Translations under genes and position numbers: made by a program
DNA from: Escherichia coli
Lineage (GTDB): Bacteria > Pseudomonadota > Gammaproteobacteria > Enterobacterales > Enterobacteriaceae
Direction: 5' to 3' (one strand)
DNA length: 64,000 nt
Assembly (NCBI RefSeq): GCF_041248615.1
Contig: NZ_CP158426.1
In this document: piece after piece, positions 16,423 through 29,036 of the stretch
Layout: every line of letters starts with the position of its first letter
How positions within the stretch are numbered: position 1 is the stretch's first letter
The notes under the pieces: model-generated
What the model saw: only the letters and a program-made list of their open reading frames with translations
What the model was told of the DNA's origin: nothing
The model's database searches: none

Positions 16423-17694
16423 CTAGCCAGCTTGAAGCGTCGTTTTTCCTCTCCCCAGTATGTAGGGCGGTACATAGGATTTGCGGCAAGTATCCAGATA
16501 ATCCGACCACCACTGCATCATTGCCTTTCTTGCTTCCAGATGCTCTGCTCTGTGAATATATGCCTGGCGTACGGAGTTACGTTCCTGGTGGCTCATTTGC
16601 CGTTCAACAGCATCCTGTGACCATATACTGGATTCCATAAGGGCACTGCATGCCATTGTCCTGAAACCGTGACCACAGATTTCCATTTTCGTATCCCAGC
16701 CCATCAGGCGTAGCGCCTTGTTCACCGTATTTTCACACATGGGTTTATACGGATTATGGTCCCCGGGGAACACGAGTGCATTATCTCCTGAGATATCCTT
16801 AATCTTTTTCAAGATCGCGATCGACTGTTGTGAGAGGGGTACGATATGAGGCCTGCGCATTTTGGCACCACGACCAGAGTAACGCACGCCTTCAATAGCT
16901 TCGCGCGTGGCGGGTATTGTCCAGACCTGGTTTCCGAAATCAATTTCATGCCAGCGGGCAAAACGCAATTCACTCGAGCGAATGAACAGATGCAGTGTTA
17001 GCAGGATGGCAAGGCGAGTGAGTTCACGGCACTGCTGAAAACTCTCAATGCTCTCAAGCAGTTCTGGAAGACGCTCCAGTGGTAGAGCGGGGTAGTGTCG
17101 TTTTACTGGTGGAGCCGTCACTCCGTCAAGGTTTGCTGCCGGATTAAAATCGATTAATCCATGATGCACGGCGTAGCGCATGATATTCCGGAGGTGCTGG
17201 CGTGTACGGGATGCAACTTCCAGGAGACCCTTTTCCTCAATTCCTTTTAATAAAGTGATGAAATGGCGGGGTTTCAGTTCTGAAACTGACATGGTGCCAA
17301 TGACTGGGAAGATATGATTATTCATGCTGGCGAGCAAACGGTCGGCGGTGTTCTCTGACCATTTTTTATTGCTCTTGTGCCATGCAAGTGCAACGTTTCT
17401 AAACACTTTCTTTGGCATGCGAGAACTGCGTTCGGCTGCTCGCTGCTCTGCTGGATTGATGTTCAGTACCAGCATTTTGCGAATACCTTCACGTTGACTA
17501 CGGGCGTCTGAGAGGGAGATGACTGGGTAGGCACCGAGTGCAATACGTGATTCTTTACCCTTAATACGGTACTTGAGATACCAGTGACGTGAACCGCCAG
17601 GTTTGACCAAGAGATACAGACCGTGGGAATCGGAAACTTTAAAGGGTTTATCAGATGGTTTGAGACTGCGGATTTTGGTGTCGGTAAGAGACAT
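16423..17694 (-). CDS. Tyrosine integrase, P4/CP4-57 type
   Basis: 423-aa ORF; N-terminus MSLTDTKIRSLKPSDKPFKVSDSHGLYLLVKPGGSRHWYLKYR is typical of P4-like integrases; adjacent to tRNA 3' end. Confidence 0.9.
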   Translation of the reverse strand: MSLTDTKIRSLKPSDKPFKVSDSHGLYLLVKPGGSRHWYLKYRIKGKESRIALGAYPVISLSDARSQREGIRKMLVLNINPAEQRAAERSSRMPKKVFRNVALAWHKSNKKWSENTADRLLASMNNHIFPVIGTMSVSELKPRHFITLLKGIEEKGLLEVASRTRQHLRNIMRYAVHHGLIDFNPAANLDGVTAPPVKRHYPALPLERLPELLESIESFQQCRELTRLAILLTLHLFIRSSELRFARWHEIDFGNQVWTIPATREAIEGVRYSGRGAKMRRPHIVPLSQQSIAILKKIKDISGDNALVFPGDHNPYKPMCENTVNKALRLMGWDTKMEICGHGFRTMACSALMESSIWSQDAVERQMSHQERNSVRQAYIHRAEHLEARKAMMQWWSDYLDTCRKSYVPPYILGRGKTTLQAG

Positions 17695-23432: not shown

Positions 23433-23490
23433 AAAAAGGGCGGCAGAGCAGTCACGGAGTAAAACTGATACCGCCAAACGTCACCAGAAA
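23433..23490 (-). ncRNA. dicF: DicF small RNA
   Basis: Minus strand reads TTTCTGGTGACGTTTGGCGGTATCAGTTTTACTCCGTGACTGCTCTGCCGCCCTTTTT, matching DicF from memory, with intrinsic terminator; lies between ydfC and dicB. Confidence 0.7.
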
Positions 23491-23830: not shown

Positions 23831-24049
23831 TTAACGCGGGTATGTAATCATTCTGGCAATGCTTAATGCCGCTGCTTTTTCCAGATTGGTGATATCCTGC
23901 TCCAGAGCGGACAGATTTTCAGCCTGCTTAGCCCTGGCTTCATTAGCCCATTTCAGATCCTGCGCTGCATTAATTTTCTGGCGCATCCACTCATAAAGTT
24001 CATCATCGGTATAGTCTGGCGCGATTATGACGGGTTCTCGTTTCTGCAT
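23831..24049 (-). CDS. ydfC: YdfC-like protein (72 aa)
   Basis: 72-aa ORF in the expected operon position. Confidence 0.55.
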   Translation of the reverse strand: MQKREPVIIAPDYTDDELYEWMRQKINAAQDLKWANEARAKQAENLSALEQDITNLEKAAALSIARMITYPR

Positions 24050-24078
24050 ACTGATTCCTCGCGGTGCTACTTCGCTTA

Positions 24079-24207
24079 TCAGCCGTTAGATTTTGCCGAG
24101 CTGGAAAGCGCCTGTTTAAACTCACTGAAGCTGAGAGCTTCTTCGCCTTCGGCAAGGTCTTCGAAGTATTCTTCGTAAGCCTTTTCCATGATTGTGTCGA
24201 AATCCAT
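24079..24207 (-). CDS. ydfB: YdfB-like small protein (42 aa)
   Basis: Hand-translated MDFDTIMEKAYEEYFEDLAEGEEALSFSEFKQALSSSAKSNG; too short for the ORF track. Confidence 0.45.
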   Translation of the reverse strand: MDFDTIMEKAYEEYFEDLAEGEEALSFSEFKQALSSSAKSNG

Positions 24208-24208
24208 A

Positions 24209-24364
24209 TCACTCACCTGAGTTTCTTTCCAGCCAGCGACGGGCACCATTTTCGGTTTTAAACGTTTTGCTTTTGGTATACGTCATCGCGGTGAACGTGC
24301 CGTCCTGGTTGGGAAACACGCCGTACACCAGAGATTCGTTGTTGCCAAGATCGATAGTATCCAT
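24209..24364 (-). CDS. ydfA: YdfA-like protein (51 aa)
   Basis: Internal start MDTIDLGNNESLVYGVFPNQDGTFTAMTYTKSKTFKTENGARRWLERNSGE. Confidence 0.55.
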   Translation of the reverse strand: MDTIDLGNNESLVYGVFPNQDGTFTAMTYTKSKTFKTENGARRWLERNSGE

Positions 24365-24550
24365 GCTGACCTCATTTCCCCTTAACGCCGGGGTAGCGGA
24401 ACAAAAACCTGCTGCATAGTTATTAAAGTTGAACCCTGCCGTCATGTTCTTACGCCTCGGGCTGGCTACTTAACCCCTGACCACTGCCTGGTAACTCGAA
24501 GTATTGCCCTGCATTCTGTGGGGCGGGGTGGGTTGGTATGAAAAGAAGGA

Positions 24551-24586
24551 TACCCATAGGTATTTAAAAAGTAAATACCCATGGGT
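24551..24586. promoter_or_regulatory. Paired operator-like palindromes upstream of the early-left operon
   Basis: TACCCATAGGTA (24551-24562) and TACCCATGGGTA (24575-24586), 24 bp apart. Confidence 0.45.
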
Positions 24587-24629
24587 AACTTTTTGCGGTG
24601 TCTTAACTGGTGACTAGTTGTTTGGTGAG

Positions 24630-25049
24630 CTATGATGCGTTTTGTGCTTTCTTTTTACGGATTTCTTCGTAGATCATATTGTAATACTGTTTTTTCTCTT
24701 CAAGAGTTTTTAATAAGTTATCCGCTTCACTTTCTGGCAGTTCGTCTAAGAGATCTAAAAAAATACGTTGTCGTGGCGTTAGAACCCTTGTTTCATAACT
24801 GGAGGCTGTGTTCGTTGATGATGAAACGATACCATCCATCCATCCCCGGGGTAACCCAAAGGACTCTTCGATAATCTCCACCATATCATCAGCGATCCGT
24901 TTTTTTCCCTTTTTCCCCTCTGGGTACAACATTCTTGATACATAAGAAGGCTCGCGCCCGATCTTTCTGGCCACGTTAACCGCTTTACCATCGCATTTCT
25001 CATCACGAATTTTGATGAGTTGCTGTCGTCTAAATTCATATTTGTCCAT
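24630..25049 (-). CDS. Prophage repressor (DicA/RacR-like HTH protein)
   Basis: 139-aa ORF divergent from cro-like gene; HTH AVNVARKIGREPSYVSRML; C-terminal LPESEADNLLKTLEE. Confidence 0.65.
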   Translation of the reverse strand: MDKYEFRRQQLIKIRDEKCDGKAVNVARKIGREPSYVSRMLYPEGKKGKKRIADDMVEIIEESFGLPRGWMDGIVSSSTNTASSYETRVLTPRQRIFLDLLDELPESEADNLLKTLEEKKQYYNMIYEEIRKKKAQNAS

Positions 25050-25149
25050 AGGTAAATAATAGATGCGATTACCGCAAGGTAAACAACCTGTGGGTATTGA
25101 CTTTTGTTTACCTGCGGGTATTCTTTACTGTGTTTACTAAGGAGTAGCT
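25050..25149. promoter_or_regulatory. Divergent immunity promoter/operator region
   Basis: Inverted repeats built on GGTA/TACC half-sites (GGTAAATAATAGATGCGATTACC; AGGTAAACA...TGTTTACCT); TTGACT-16 nt-TATTCT promoter-like; AGGAG RBS before 25150. Confidence 0.5.
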
Positions 25150-25431
25150 ATGGAAGAATTAAGAATATTTCTCAATTCTCTTTCGTCAGATGAACAGCGT
25201 ATGTTTGCATGCGAGTGTGGTACCAGCATCGGTTATCTAAGAAAGGCATTGAGTAAAGGTCAAGTGTTAGGGGCATCGTTATGTGTCCTTATTGAGCGAG
25301 CCAGTAATGGTGAAGTTACACGTCAGCAACTAAGGCCTTTTGATTGGATGAATATTTGGCCCGAGCTGGAAGATACCAAAACGTTAACACAACCACTTTC
25401 TAGGAGCTTGATTCATGAAAATCAAGCATGA
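25150..25431 (+). CDS. Cro-like HTH regulator (YdaS-family-like)
   Basis: 93-aa ORF, first rightward gene; HTH-like CGTSIGYLRKALSKGQ. Confidence 0.55.
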   Translation: MEELRIFLNSLSSDEQRMFACECGTSIGYLRKALSKGQVLGASLCVLIERASNGEVTRQQLRPFDWMNIWPELEDTKTLTQPLSRSLIHENQA

Positions 25432-25840
25432 ACACATCCGCATGGCGATGAATGCCTGGGCGCATCCGGACGGTGAAAAAGTTCCGGCAGCTGAAATAAC
25501 CAGGGCTTATTTTGAACTGGGTATGACGTTCCCAGAACTGTATGACGACAGCCATCCGGAAGCCCTGGCTCGCAATACCCAGAAAATTTTCCGCTGGGTA
25601 GAGAAAGACACCCCTGATGCAGTTGAAAAAATTCAGGCGTTGTTACCAGCGATCGAAAAGGCAATGCCACCTTTGCTGGTGGCCAGAATGCGCAGCCACA
25701 GTTCAGCTTATTTTCGGGAACTGGTGGAGACGCGGGAGCGACTGGTGAGAGACGCTGATGATTTTGTCGCAGTGGCAATCGCCGGTTTCAATCAGATGAA
25801 CCGTGGTGGCCCGGCAGGAAATGCTGTGGCAGTACATTGA
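25415..25840 (+). CDS. YdaT-like protein (cII-position gene)
   Basis: 141-aa ORF beginning MKIKHEHI, which I associate with YdaT. Confidence 0.5.
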   Translation: MKIKHEHIRMAMNAWAHPDGEKVPAAEITRAYFELGMTFPELYDDSHPEALARNTQKIFRWVEKDTPDAVEKIQALLPAIEKAMPPLLVARMRSHSSAYFRELVETRERLVRDADDFVAVAIAGFNQMNRGGPAGNAVAVH

Positions 25841-27000
25841 CTGACAATAGCCATATCGAATCGCTTCCGGCAACTCGTGAGGAAAAAGATTCGGTATCAG
25901 AAGAGGTGAGTATGGCTAACGCCTGGCTCAGATTATGGCATGACATGCCAAATGACCCTAAGTGGCGAACAATTGCCAGGGTGTCAGGGCAGCCAATTGC
26001 AACAGTGATGGCAGTGTATATCCACCTCCTGGTGAGCGCGTCACGAAATGTCACGCGAGGTCACATTGATGTCACGACAGAAGATTTGGCAAGTGCGCTC
26101 GACGTGACAGAAGAGGTAATTGATTCAATTTTGCAGACGATGCAGGGGCGGGTACTTGATGGTGATTTAATCACTGGATGGGAAAAACGCCAGGTGCTTA
26201 AAGAGGACAACGGCAATATTTCGCAAACCGCAAAATCTCCTGCAGAGCGCAAGAGGGCGCAGCGAGAGAGGGAAAGAAAGCGGGAACAAAATGGCGATTG
26301 TCACGGCGCGTCACGAAATGTCACGCACATGTCACGACGAGTCACGACAGATAAAGATACAGATAAAGATACAGATAAAGATACAGATACAGATCAAGAA
26401 GATCAAAACACTATGGTCCATGGCGTAAAAAACGCCACGAACCAGGCAGGGGATGTTCAGACCGTCAATCTTGGTCAGCCAGCAGGCACGACACCGGAAG
26501 CCGATTCAGCGTATGCGCTGAAAGCCGATTCGGGCGCTGTGCAGCAGGTGATGACCGCAAGGCCGGAGCAATCACACCAACTGCAGCAGCCTGAAGCCGA
26601 TTCCGCCATTCAGCGGGAAGCCGATCGGGTAGTCCCGGAAAACACCGGGCAGCCTGTGGGACGAGTAGATTATCCGGATGTGTTCGAACAGGTCTGGCGG
26701 GAATACCCGTTGCGTGCTGGGGCAAACCCGAAGAAATCCGCTTTCAGTGCTTGGAAGGCCAGATTACGCGAGGGGGTGCCACCAGAGGCCATGCTGGATG
26801 GTGTGAGGCGTTACGCAAGATACCTGGCGGCTACCGGGAAAACGGGAACGGAATTTGTTCAGCGAGCGACGACGTTTTTTGGACCGGACCGGAATTTTGA
26901 AAACCCCTGGTTTCTCCCGGTAAGCAGTACGAACAACCAGCGTTGTGTGAATCATATTTCTGAACCGGATACCGAAATTCCACCGGGCTTCAGGGGGTAA
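25837..27000 (+). CDS. Replication initiator (O-like N-terminus, DUF1376/YdaU-like C-terminus)
   Basis: 387-aa ORF; N-terminal ANAWLRLWHDMPNDPKWRTIARVSG; iteron arrays inside the coding sequence; DKDT repeats. Confidence 0.7.
   Translation: MTDNSHIESLPATREEKDSVSEEVSMANAWLRLWHDMPNDPKWRTIARVSGQPIATVMAVYIHLLVSASRNVTRGHIDVTTEDLASALDVTEEVIDSILQTMQGRVLDGDLITGWEKRQVLKEDNGNISQTAKSPAERKRAQRERERKREQNGDCHGASRNVTHMSRRVTTDKDTDKDTDKDTDTDQEDQNTMVHGVKNATNQAGDVQTVNLGQPAGTTPEADSAYALKADSGAVQQVMTARPEQSHQLQQPEADSAIQREADRVVPENTGQPVGRVDYPDVFEQVWREYPLRAGANPKKSAFSAWKARLREGVPPEAMLDGVRRYARYLAATGKTGTEFVQRATTFFGPDRNFENPWFLPVSSTNNQRCVNHISEPDTEIPPGFRG
26040..26385. repeat. Phage origin: two GTCACG iteron arrays plus 3x12-bp AT-rich repeats
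   Basis: GTCACG at 26040, 26050, 26060 (GTCACA), 26071 and at 26300, 26310, 26320, 26331, 26341 (10-11 bp phasing); GATAAAGATACA x3 at 26350-26385. Confidence 0.65.
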
Positions 27001-27701: not shown

Positions 27702-29036
27702 TTATGATACCGATAAAAACTTTGTTGCAATTTCTGCTGCCGTTTTCTCCATGCTGGGATATACAGTGCTTTCGGATATATTAAGCTGCGCCAGCTCTTC
27801 CAGAATTTTATTTTTGTTCGCTATCTCCACTCTGTTAAGAGGAAACTCAGCATCTGTTTCCGGTAAAATGGGATCAAGTCCGAACAGAAGAAAAGCTCCT
27901 GCCTGAGATTGTATGCGTTCATTATTTATTTTAGCCTTAAGGAAAACAACTTTCCTTAAGTCATCAGGAATTATTCTGTTTCTGAAATATGATTTTTCAT
28001 TCTGTATAAGGTCTGCAAGTTTATCCGTGAGTTCAGATAACTCCATATTACCTTTTCTGGAATCAGAGGAGGACAATTTTTCCAACTCTTCGTAAGATAA
28101 AAGTGATAAGTTTGCTATACAGCTCACTGTATCTGAGTCGAAATATTTAATTTTCTTTCTATTTGTTGAAAACGAAATCACCTGTCCGTTTTCATCGGGG
28201 TTCGAACAGCAAGCAAAATATAATGCTATCAGTGGGTTAGATGTAATGTCTAAGAGTCTTGTAGGCAAGCCATAATGCTGCATGCGGACAAGTTTATCAA
28301 TCGTAAATTTATCCTCCTTAAATTCATTTGGTCTTGCGCTGAGTATTTCACGTACTAAATCAGATTCTGAAGCAAGATGCCTGTACGTCCCGTTTTGATT
28401 TTTTCTGTAAAGAGAGGGGACAAGCTCATATGAGCTTTTAGAGTGTCCACGATAAAAGGTAATGAGACCATCACGAAAGTTTTTCTTTATGAAATTAAGA
28501 TAATCTATAATATTCTCGACTACTGGGTATGTTTGTTTTTTTAATTTGATTGTACCTTTCAGTTGGCTATTTTGTTTGTTTAAACCAAGTGATTCCAGAA
28601 CAATATTTAAATCCTTATTTTTTACTGCCCAATGTGTACGACTTAACCCGAAAGATCCTAGCCCTAGGGTTTCTTTATATAATGTCGTTTGGGGATTCGT
28701 TATTTCTCCAAAATTATGATTAATCTTGAAAGAAAATAAAATATCGCCACCATCTTTACGTAAGTTTCTTATTTCCCCAAGTCTGATCCTGATGTACTTG
28801 TTTGTATCATATTCATCATCTTTTGTATAAGTTTCGGTCATGAACAATACTGGTAGCTTGGCGAGTTCTCTTAAGGTATCGGGTCTTATTGGTGTTAATT
28901 TACTGTAAATATCGCTTGGGGTGCCTTCCAGCATGCGGGACATCGAGAATCTTTCCTCGCCTTCTTTAAGCCCAGGGTCCATACACGGCCAGCGGTCAAA
29001 AACGTCCGGTTCTCCGGCCATGATTAAGCTAAACAT
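27702..29036 (-). CDS. FRG-domain protein (candidate anti-phage/abortive-infection moron)
   Basis: 444-aa ORF on the opposite strand to neighbours, in ~1.9 kb AT-rich block; motifs FYRGHS, LVPSLYR, QHYGLPTRLLDITSNPLIALYFA fit the FRG domain as I recall it; palindromic hairpin at its 3' end. Confidence 0.6.
   Translation of the reverse strand: MFSLIMAGEPDVFDRWPCMDPGLKEGEERFSMSRMLEGTPSDIYSKLTPIRPDTLRELAKLPVLFMTETYTKDDEYDTNKYIRIRLGEIRNLRKDGGDILFSFKINHNFGEITNPQTTLYKETLGLGSFGLSRTHWAVKNKDLNIVLESLGLNKQNSQLKGTIKLKKQTYPVVENIIDYLNFIKKNFRDGLITFYRGHSKSSYELVPSLYRKNQNGTYRHLASESDLVREILSARPNEFKEDKFTIDKLVRMQHYGLPTRLLDITSNPLIALYFACCSNPDENGQVISFSTNRKKIKYFDSDTVSCIANLSLLSYEELEKLSSSDSRKGNMELSELTDKLADLIQNEKSYFRNRIIPDDLRKVVFLKAKINNERIQSQAGAFLLFGLDPILPETDAEFPLNRVEIANKNKILEELAQLNISESTVYPSMEKTAAEIATKFLSVS

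Follow-up and report, generated by a model that had tools for sequence, protein, structure and literature searches.

Palindromes sharing a TACC-N4-GGTA motif on both sides of a prophage repressor gene in Escherichia coli are candidate left and right operators of a lambdoid immunity region

The DNA analysed here is a stretch of 64,000 nucleotides of the Escherichia coli contig NZ_CP158426.1 (the window), in which we studied the repressor gene of a lambdoid prophage and the palindromes that flank it. In an E. coli genome that is 100% identical over positions 24000-26000 the prophage adjoins mtfA and a tRNA-Ser gene; it is of the lambdoid Qin/CP-933P type, has integrated beside these two genes, and has the region under study as its immunity region. 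The repressor gene and a cro-like gene are divergent, with the predicted promoter for repressor maintenance (PRM) and the predicted rightward promoter (PR) back-to-back in the gap between them. To the left of the repressor, on the same strand, lie ydfA, ydfB, ydfC, the DicF RNA, dicB, a gene encoding an 813-amino-acid exonuclease and the integrase gene. The repressor is thus directly upstream of the ydfABC-dicF-dicB operon, and a comparison with K-12 gave the same gene order as in the Qin immunity region of that strain. The elements needed for what follows are listed below, with OL and OR standing for the left and right operators and PL for the leftward promoter.

24547-24575, minus strand: predicted PL, read from the sequence, with a -35 hexamer TTTACT (24575-24570), a 17-nt spacer and a -10 hexamer TATCCT (24552-24547)
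24551-24562: candidate site OL1, TACCCATAGGTA, an exact match of the motif described below, with half-sites invariant in the 10-locus alignment A3
24576-24587: candidate site OL2, TACCCATGGGTA, a perfect palindrome and exact match that abuts the PL -35 hexamer
24630-25049, minus strand: repressor gene, an open reading frame (ORF) of 139 amino acids (PHROG 5736 'transcriptional regulator', E 4e-70)
25056-25083, minus strand: predicted PRM, from a promoter scan, with -35 TTTACC (25083-25078, inside OR3), a 16-nt spacer and -10 TATTAT (25061-25056)
25070-25081: candidate site OR3, TACCGCAAGGTA, an exact match overlapping the PRM -35 and spacer
25085-25096: candidate site OR2, AACCTGTGGGTA, with one mismatch, abutting the PR -35 and ending one base before it
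25097-25124, plus strand: predicted PR, from the promoter scan, with TTGACT, a 16-nt spacer and TATTCT
25109-25120: candidate site OR1, TACCTGCGGGTA, an exact match in the PR spacer whose last two bases begin the -10
25150-25431, plus strand: cro-like gene of the YdaS family, 93 amino acids (PHROG 35; weak Pfam YdaS match)

The palindromes share the 12-bp motif TACC-N4-GGTA (TACCNNNNGGTA), of which four exact matches occur in the 64 kb against 0.44 expected, a number reached in none of 100 shuffles (0/100). These matches start at 24551, 24576, 25070 and 25109, all inside 570 bp round the repressor gene, and the other 63 kb of the window contain no exact TACC-N4-GGTA. A fifth site with one mismatch, AACCTGTGGGTA at 25085, is placed between both right-hand exact sites, and the OL and OR clusters are about 530 bp apart. 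The informative search pattern proved to be the half-sites with a free centre; the full palindrome TACCCATGGGTA, searched with two mismatches, returned just both left sites, which is chance level, and was discarded.

Operator-like palindromes with GGTA/TACC half-sites on both sides of the repressor had already been pointed out by a sequence-only reading of this DNA, and all the sequences that it quoted are in place. Its left pair, TACCCATAGGTA and TACCCATGGGTA, is present, but the spacing of 24 bp given for it is not correct, the two sites being 25 bp apart from start to start with 13 nt between them. On the right it described GGTAA (25051-25055)-N13-TTACC (25069-25073) and the repeats AGGTAAACA (25077-25085) and TGTTTACCT (25105-25113). 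These inverted repeats exist, but they are not the site units; they combine outer halves and flanks of neighbouring 12-bp sites, which are really three.

The sites stand in a fixed arrangement with the predicted promoters. The promoter-like pair TTGACT (25097-25102)/TATTCT (25119-25124), with its 16-nt spacer, was recognised from the sequence alone and found independently by the promoter scan, which reports PR and PRM and no other promoter in the region. At PL the site OL1 lies in the spacer, its final two bases being the first two of the -10 hexamer, and PL/OL is an inverted copy of PR/OR. Counted from the predicted PRM start, the site centres are at -26.5 (OR3), -41.5 (OR2) and -65.5 (OR1), and the centre of OR2 is at -40.5 from the predicted PR start. 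The predicted PR would drive cro and ydaT, and the predicted PL would drive ydfA-ydfB-ydfC-dicF-dicB and further leftward genes. Moreover, the predicted PRM start coincides with the A of the repressor ATG (25049) and no Shine-Dalgarno sequence is found ahead of this ATG, so that the repressor transcript is predicted to be leaderless. Transcripts of this kind are known from lambda cI and CP-933P paaR2 (PMC8630535).

Conservation of the sites was evaluated in a set of ten loci, composed of the window, phages mEp043 and CharmingMan and seven diverged loci, with the right operators in alignment A2 and the left operators in A3. Among sequenced phages, a close N-terminal repressor domain is found in mEp043 and CharmingMan only, and each of them has the same five sites, two at PL and three between cI and cro. 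The diverged loci were retrieved by exact-protein look-up of diverged homologues (n=8). Seven of these eight, from Salmonella, Pantoea, Yersinia, Edwardsiella, Serratia, Klebsiella aerogenes and a metagenome, have exact OR1 and OR3 sites 40 bp apart that enclose a degenerate OR2, and farther downstream they carry an exact pair spaced by 25-26 bp. The eighth, Klebsiella locus L086, is a remnant that adjoins a host gene and has a single site on either side; it was not counted as support. A scan of viral contigs with the N-terminal domain alignment gave identical E. coli copies only and was useless for judging conservation.

Across the ten loci the OR2-OR3 spacing is always 15 bp, OR1-OR2 is 24-25 bp (24 bp in the window and 25 bp outside it) and OL1-OL2 is 25-26 bp, and the same PL geometry is present in all relatives. 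In A2 and A3 no variation is seen in the TACC and GGTA half-sites, at the TTG of the -35, at the final T of the -10 or in the PRM -10; the four central bases of the sites and the remainder of the spacers vary. In nearly all relatives the left half of OR2 is degenerate. The 50 sites pooled give the extended consensus wTACCyr.yrGGTAw. The question raised with the sequence-only reading, whether the motifs are conserved in related prophages, is answered by these alignments, the sites being conserved across the 10 loci. More distant phages with 35-50% identity, namely Mannheimia phage 587AP2, Xanthomonas phage Rb1 and Pseudomonas phage JBD68, carry (T/A)ACC-N4-GGT(A/T) in the gap and have a second pair of sites 25-26 bp apart.

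Two loci served as negative controls. Phage Tritos has the left flank including ydfA, the repressor C-terminal domain and ydaT in common with the window but a different N-terminal domain and Cro; TACC-N4-GGTA is absent from 4.3 kb of its sequence and GTAC-type palindromes are found at the same place. The Qin prophage has no TACC-N4-GGTA and carries TGTTAG..CTAACA in the dicC/dicA gap and at the promoter dicBp. The motif tracks the repressor N-terminal domain together with Cro, and it is independent of the C-terminal type (DicA-like or S24), of the CII type (YdaT, Phage_CII or CP76) and of the content of the left operon. It is because the sites co-vary with the DNA-binding module that a case can be made for the repressor or Cro acting on them, and we consider it very likely that the palindromes flanking the repressor gene would be its left and right operators in a lambda-style switch. 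The OL/OR-style arrangement first seen in the sequence is thus borne out, with sites that follow the DNA-binding domain and Cro, keep a fixed register with PL, PR and PRM, and are replaced in Tritos and Qin.

Two other arrangements of half-sites were noticed beside these operators. A fourth right-hand site, TGTCCATAGGTA (25043-25054), which holds the GGTAA at 25051, was considered and rejected, its GGTA half not being conserved in relatives. It overlaps with the start codon of the repressor and is similar to OL1 (both contain CCATAGGTA); the window may have here, at the PRM start, a weak site of its own, or the match may be a product of chance. Wider-set half-sites of the form TTACCTG-N10-11-CAGGTAA occur 25-50 bp upstream of OL2 in mEp043 (locus L002, about 1640-1665) and in loci L085, L087 and L091; this inverted repeat, absent from the window, may be a split third left operator.

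We consider it extremely improbable that these palindromes match by chance or that a different regulator, for instance the CII-like YdaT, binds them. Short palindromes are frequent in AT-rich intergenic DNA, and the motif with one mismatch allowed is not enriched over the whole window (19 matches against 13.5 expected), but the exact motif is clustered and is conserved across genera. As for YdaT, this protein has a site of its own at the cro/ydaT junction.

25408-25425: YdaT motif TTGATTCATGAAAATCAA, an exact match and the sole one in the window, located just outside the cassette delimited further below
25415-25840, plus strand: ydaT, encoding a CII-like regulator of 141 amino acids (Pfam YdaT_toxin)

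This site, which phage Tritos has as well, overlaps both the end of cro and the start codon of ydaT. The YdaT protein is near-identical to PDB 3c4r and matches 8bt1, the YdaT of CP-933P, with an E-value of 1e-80. In CP-933P the YdaT binding motif is TTGATT-N6-AATCAA, located at the end of ydaS (PMC9986795). YdaT as the reader of the TACC sites was ruled out by this separate published motif, with its one exact match at 25408, and by the persistence of the TACC sites in loci where YdaT is absent and the CII is of another type.

The repressor is predicted to consist of an N-terminal helix-turn-helix domain (about residues 1-72), a disordered linker (76-87) and a DicA-type helical C-terminal domain (about 89-139). 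Pfam gave no match to this protein even at E<=10: neither HTH_3 in the N-terminal domain, a family that DicA itself matches at E 1e-16, nor Peptidase S24 (PF00717), to which the same N-terminal domain is fused elsewhere. Residues 86-136 match positions 81-131 of the NCBIfam DicA profile NF007257 (E 2.8e-5), but the whole-protein DicA model failed, with 23.9 bits against the NCBIfam cut-off of 101 bits. In BLASTP the repressor is 33% identical to DicA (E 3e-7). Its overall match to Tritos CI has E 6e-23, the C-terminal tails being nearly identical, and its first 75 residues or so show 65-85% identity to the N-terminal domain found in many S24-bearing CI proteins of 220-245 amino acids from Salmonella, Klebsiella, Pantoea, Edwardsiella, Yersinia and others. 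Among the best 120 homologues, 89 share the N-terminal part alone and 29 both parts, which indicates that the repressor is a domain chimera. Judged by these comparisons, it is neither DicA nor a classical CI, since the whole-protein DicA model failed and an S24 domain is lacking, and by its C-terminal domain and genomic position it is to be placed with the short non-cleavable prophage repressors.

An AlphaFold model of the protein (predicted local distance difference test, pLDDT, of 83.7) has N-terminal helices at residues 3-18, 23-30, 34-40 and 54-63 and a helical hairpin at 92-103 and 106-138. In Foldseek the model is matched best by the Rep repressor of phage SPC32H, by restriction-modification controller proteins and by the domain of the 434 repressor, each of which has an XRE-type helix-turn-helix; a search of solved structures with the repressor sequence gave insignificant matches only. 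The predicted recognition helix corresponds to residues 34-40 (PSYVSRM), and this helix with its surroundings (REPSYVSRMLY) is nearly invariant in the family, across the motif-bearing loci.

Some of the evidence weighs against a lambda-style switch with these operators. The predicted PL agrees with the consensus at 8/12 positions, which is under the threshold of the promoter scan, and the scan did not report it. The Foldseek E-values are weak, the best being 3e-3. In lambda the OR2-OR3 spacing is 23 bp; with 15 bp here, the detailed logic of lambda may not transfer. Frameshifted repressor alleles are found in some E. coli strains (proteins P0012, P0015 and P0018) and the switch is hence not intact everywhere. 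Finally, the left pair folds in RNA as a hairpin of -22.9 kcal/mol (z = -6.0) followed by a U-run, and all loci examined have inherited Cro together with the repressor N-terminal domain; each of these last two facts bears on a different explanation of the sites, discussed below. As regards the frameshifted alleles themselves, the first 40-50 residues are read in a different frame, which corresponds to an alternative frame of the window at 24779-25039 on the minus strand, and the DNA-binding domain is probably lost.

The hairpin could mean that the left pair is mainly an intrinsic terminator of the repressor transcript, formed by a 16-bp RNA stem and then UCCUUCUUUU, which would keep PRM transcripts out of the toxic dicF-dicB operon and is compatible with an operator role. 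A terminator scan reports the OL pair on the minus strand (24587-24551 plus tail), and the hairpin begins 43 nt past the repressor stop codon with no terminator-like element between. However, we find this unlikely as the main function, as such a hairpin arises automatically from any two similar palindromes (-11.6 to -24.6 kcal/mol in relatives) and its stem has G-C pairs at 5/16 positions. In the relatives the T-runs are weaker and are simply the -10 element; the pair keeps its register with a -35/-10 pair in every case, even where as much as 1.9 kb separates it from the repressor gene. Furthermore, the same pair geometry is present at PR, where a terminator would be senseless. The OL-pair hairpin may nevertheless help to stop PRM transcripts.

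The second fact concerns the protein that reads the sites. The Cro of the window is homologous to the Cro of every locus with the operator motif and, since Cro and the N-terminal domain are always co-inherited, sequence cannot tell which protein, or both, reads the sites. If they were read by the Cro-like protein alone, or by the repressor alone, the switch logic would be unlike that of lambda. The joint inheritance of Cro, N-terminal domain and sites fits either protein alone, and in CP-933P, where the footprints of PaaR2 and YdaS overlap, it has yet to be established which exact sequences the two proteins bind (PMC8630535). A single reader is nonetheless improbable, given that overlapping repressor and Cro footprints are the rule in lambda and CP-933P (PMC8630535), that a prophage repressor without sites at PR and PL could not maintain lysogeny, and that the predicted recognition helix of the N-terminal domain hardly varies among the loci bearing the motif.

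Returning to left and right operators used in the lambda manner, we infer the working of the switch (the binding protein, cooperativity, activation, leaderless start and induction route) from the anatomy of the region, from lambda, from the footprinted CP-933P region and from Qin genetics (PMC8630535, PMC10448788). Dimers of the 139-amino-acid repressor would recognise TACC-N4-GGTA through the predicted XRE-type helix-turn-helix. At PR and PL alike, one site would fill the spacer into the -10 (OR1, OL1) and a second, 24-25 bp upstream, would abut the -35 (OR2, OL2); sites over the spacer and -10 and against the -35 imply that their occupancy would exclude RNA polymerase. Repression would then silence cro, ydaT and the replication genes rightward and ydfABC-dicF-dicB, the exonuclease gene and int leftward. 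The left half of OR2 is weak, and this site would thus probably need cooperative help from OR1 through the helical C-terminal domain. From its position at -41.5 of a PRM predicted to be leaderless, OR2 could activate this promoter, as lambda CI does, and as OR3 overlaps the PRM -35, binding of Cro or of surplus repressor to it would stop repressor synthesis. Probably the Cro homologue acts at the same sites. Without an S24 peptidase domain, RecA-mediated cleavage should not induce this prophage. Rem is a known antirepressor of DicA (PMC10448788), and no homologue of the Rem type was detected in the window.

The closest known systems share different parts of this arrangement. In Qin, a cro-like gene, a divergent short repressor and then ydfA-ydfB-ydfC-dicF-dicB on the repressor strand are found as in the window, both repressors have 135-139 amino acids, no S24 peptidase and a related C-terminal domain, and palindromes are present in the divergent gap and at the dicB-operon promoter dicBp (PMC10448788). 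The two differ in that the N-terminal domain of DicA belongs to Pfam HTH_3 whereas that of the window repressor has no Pfam match, that the Qin sites are TGTTAG..CTAACA and not TACC-N4-GGTA, and that DicC is unrelated to the window Cro.

The PaaR2/YdaS/YdaT region of CP-933P from E. coli O157:H7 is the experimentally footprinted model of this architecture (PMC8630535). It has a short repressor, a YdaS-type Cro, a YdaT-type CII, OR and OL clusters and a leaderless repressor mRNA, and its YdaT is nearly the same protein, with the TTGATT-N6-AATCAA site at the same place. The systems are set apart by their operator half-sites, that of CP-933P being GTTTAGTAA. We searched the window for these half-sites with at most one mismatch and found 10 against 10.9 expected, one of them near OR; as operators of this region they were rejected, being at chance level. 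In addition, the window repressor is not followed by the paaA2-parE2 toxin-antitoxin pair.

Phage mEp043 shares the DNA-binding module with the window, having a repressor N-terminal domain that is 76% identical, including the REPSYVSRMLYPEG segment, and a Cro that is 73% identical. The five-site layout at OR and PL is common to the window, mEp043 and CharmingMan, and in mEp043 PL lies upstream of gene N. The difference is in the tail: the CI of mEp043 has 228 amino acids with an S24 peptidase C-terminal domain and is presumably RecA-cleavable, whereas the window protein has the DicA-type helical tail. From this resemblance of domains and sites, mEp043 and the window probably share their immunity specificity.

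With lambda CI/Cro the region has in common the divergent repressor and cro, three sites over PR and PRM, a second cluster at PL and, as predicted here, a leaderless PRM transcript. As seen here, adjacent sites at the lytic promoters of lambda are 24-25 bp apart and OR2 is near -42 of PRM. It differs from lambda in having sites of 12-14 bp instead of 17 bp, two OL sites, 15 bp between OR2 and OR3, OL and OR only about 530 bp apart, a repressor without an S24 domain and a CII function from YdaT. The Rep protein of Salmonella phage SPC32H (PDB 5d50/5d4z), the best structural match, is a short phage repressor that was crystallised with its antirepressor; however, the E-value is just 3e-3 with 16-22% identity, and no antirepressor was identified in the window. 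By analogy, the region would work like the lambda, Qin and CP-933P switches and would be, in kind, a standard lambdoid switch.

The suggestion of a novel immunity specificity needs to be qualified. In the searchable literature, which does not cover subscription journals, we found no description of TACC-N4-GGTA site sequences and no published operator study of mEp043. The specificity is experimentally undescribed and differs from those of Qin/DicA and CP-933P/PaaR2, but it is undescribed rather than unique, being common to mEp043, CharmingMan, many prophages and 15% of the complete genomes of E. coli.

We propose more tentatively, as something that falls a little short of probable, that the N-terminal domain, Cro and TACC-N4-GGTA constitute one old immunity module without a Pfam family, whose specificity appears to have hardly changed among phages of Enterobacterales, Pasteurellales, Pseudomonadales and Xanthomonadales, with the C-terminal half of the repressor swapped freely between an SOS-cleavable S24 and a non-cleavable DicA type. 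If so, such prophages would give cross-immunity against mEp043-like phages and yet answer a different induction signal, and the same operators would allow a direct comparison of induction routes. One DNA-binding domain naturally paired with a cleavable or a non-cleavable tail is a ready-made system for questions of prophage induction. The operator consensus, the promoter map and the cassette boundaries make this unannotated region testable.

These boundaries come from the alignment with phage Tritos.

24534-25402: immunity cassette, comprising PL/OL, the repressor gene, OR/PRM/PR and cro

Tritos and the window are 98% identical up to 24533 and 96% identical from 25403 onward, and between these positions they are unrelated except for 24631-24746, the C-terminal part of the repressor, at 76%. 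The left junction is approximately at the predicted PL start and the right edge is five bases ahead of the YdaT site. The cassette was found in 821 of 5,426 complete E. coli genomes (15%), and in the E. coli genomes that carry it the repressor is annotated only as 'hypothetical protein'.

Other features of the window were also observed. The DicF small RNA is full-length (23438-23489, minus strand, between ydfC and dicB; Rfam RF00039, 76.7 bits) and is placed inside the operon that the predicted PL would drive. To the right of the immunity region, a 387-amino-acid putative replication gene contains clustered GTCACG repeats in two blocks (26036-26081 and 26306-26351) with an 85% cross-match, and these look like origin iterons inside an initiator gene, for which lambda O is a precedent. 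The same ORF includes a tandem repeat of the GATAAAGATACA type at about 26345-26400, which codes for a DKDT run.

In the early-right region an ORF of 444 amino acids (27702-29036, minus strand) is on the strand opposite to its neighbouring genes. In NZ_CP048107, which has an otherwise near-identical prophage, a QueH gene is annotated at about the position of this ORF, which may be an accessory cargo gene. Immediately to the left of the prophage and mtfA there is a second integrase-like ORF of 423 amino acids (16423-17694, minus strand). Its product starts with MSLTDTKIRSLKPSDKPF, a start that we take to be typical of P4-family integrases, and this suggests another integrated element in the first 17 kb of the window.

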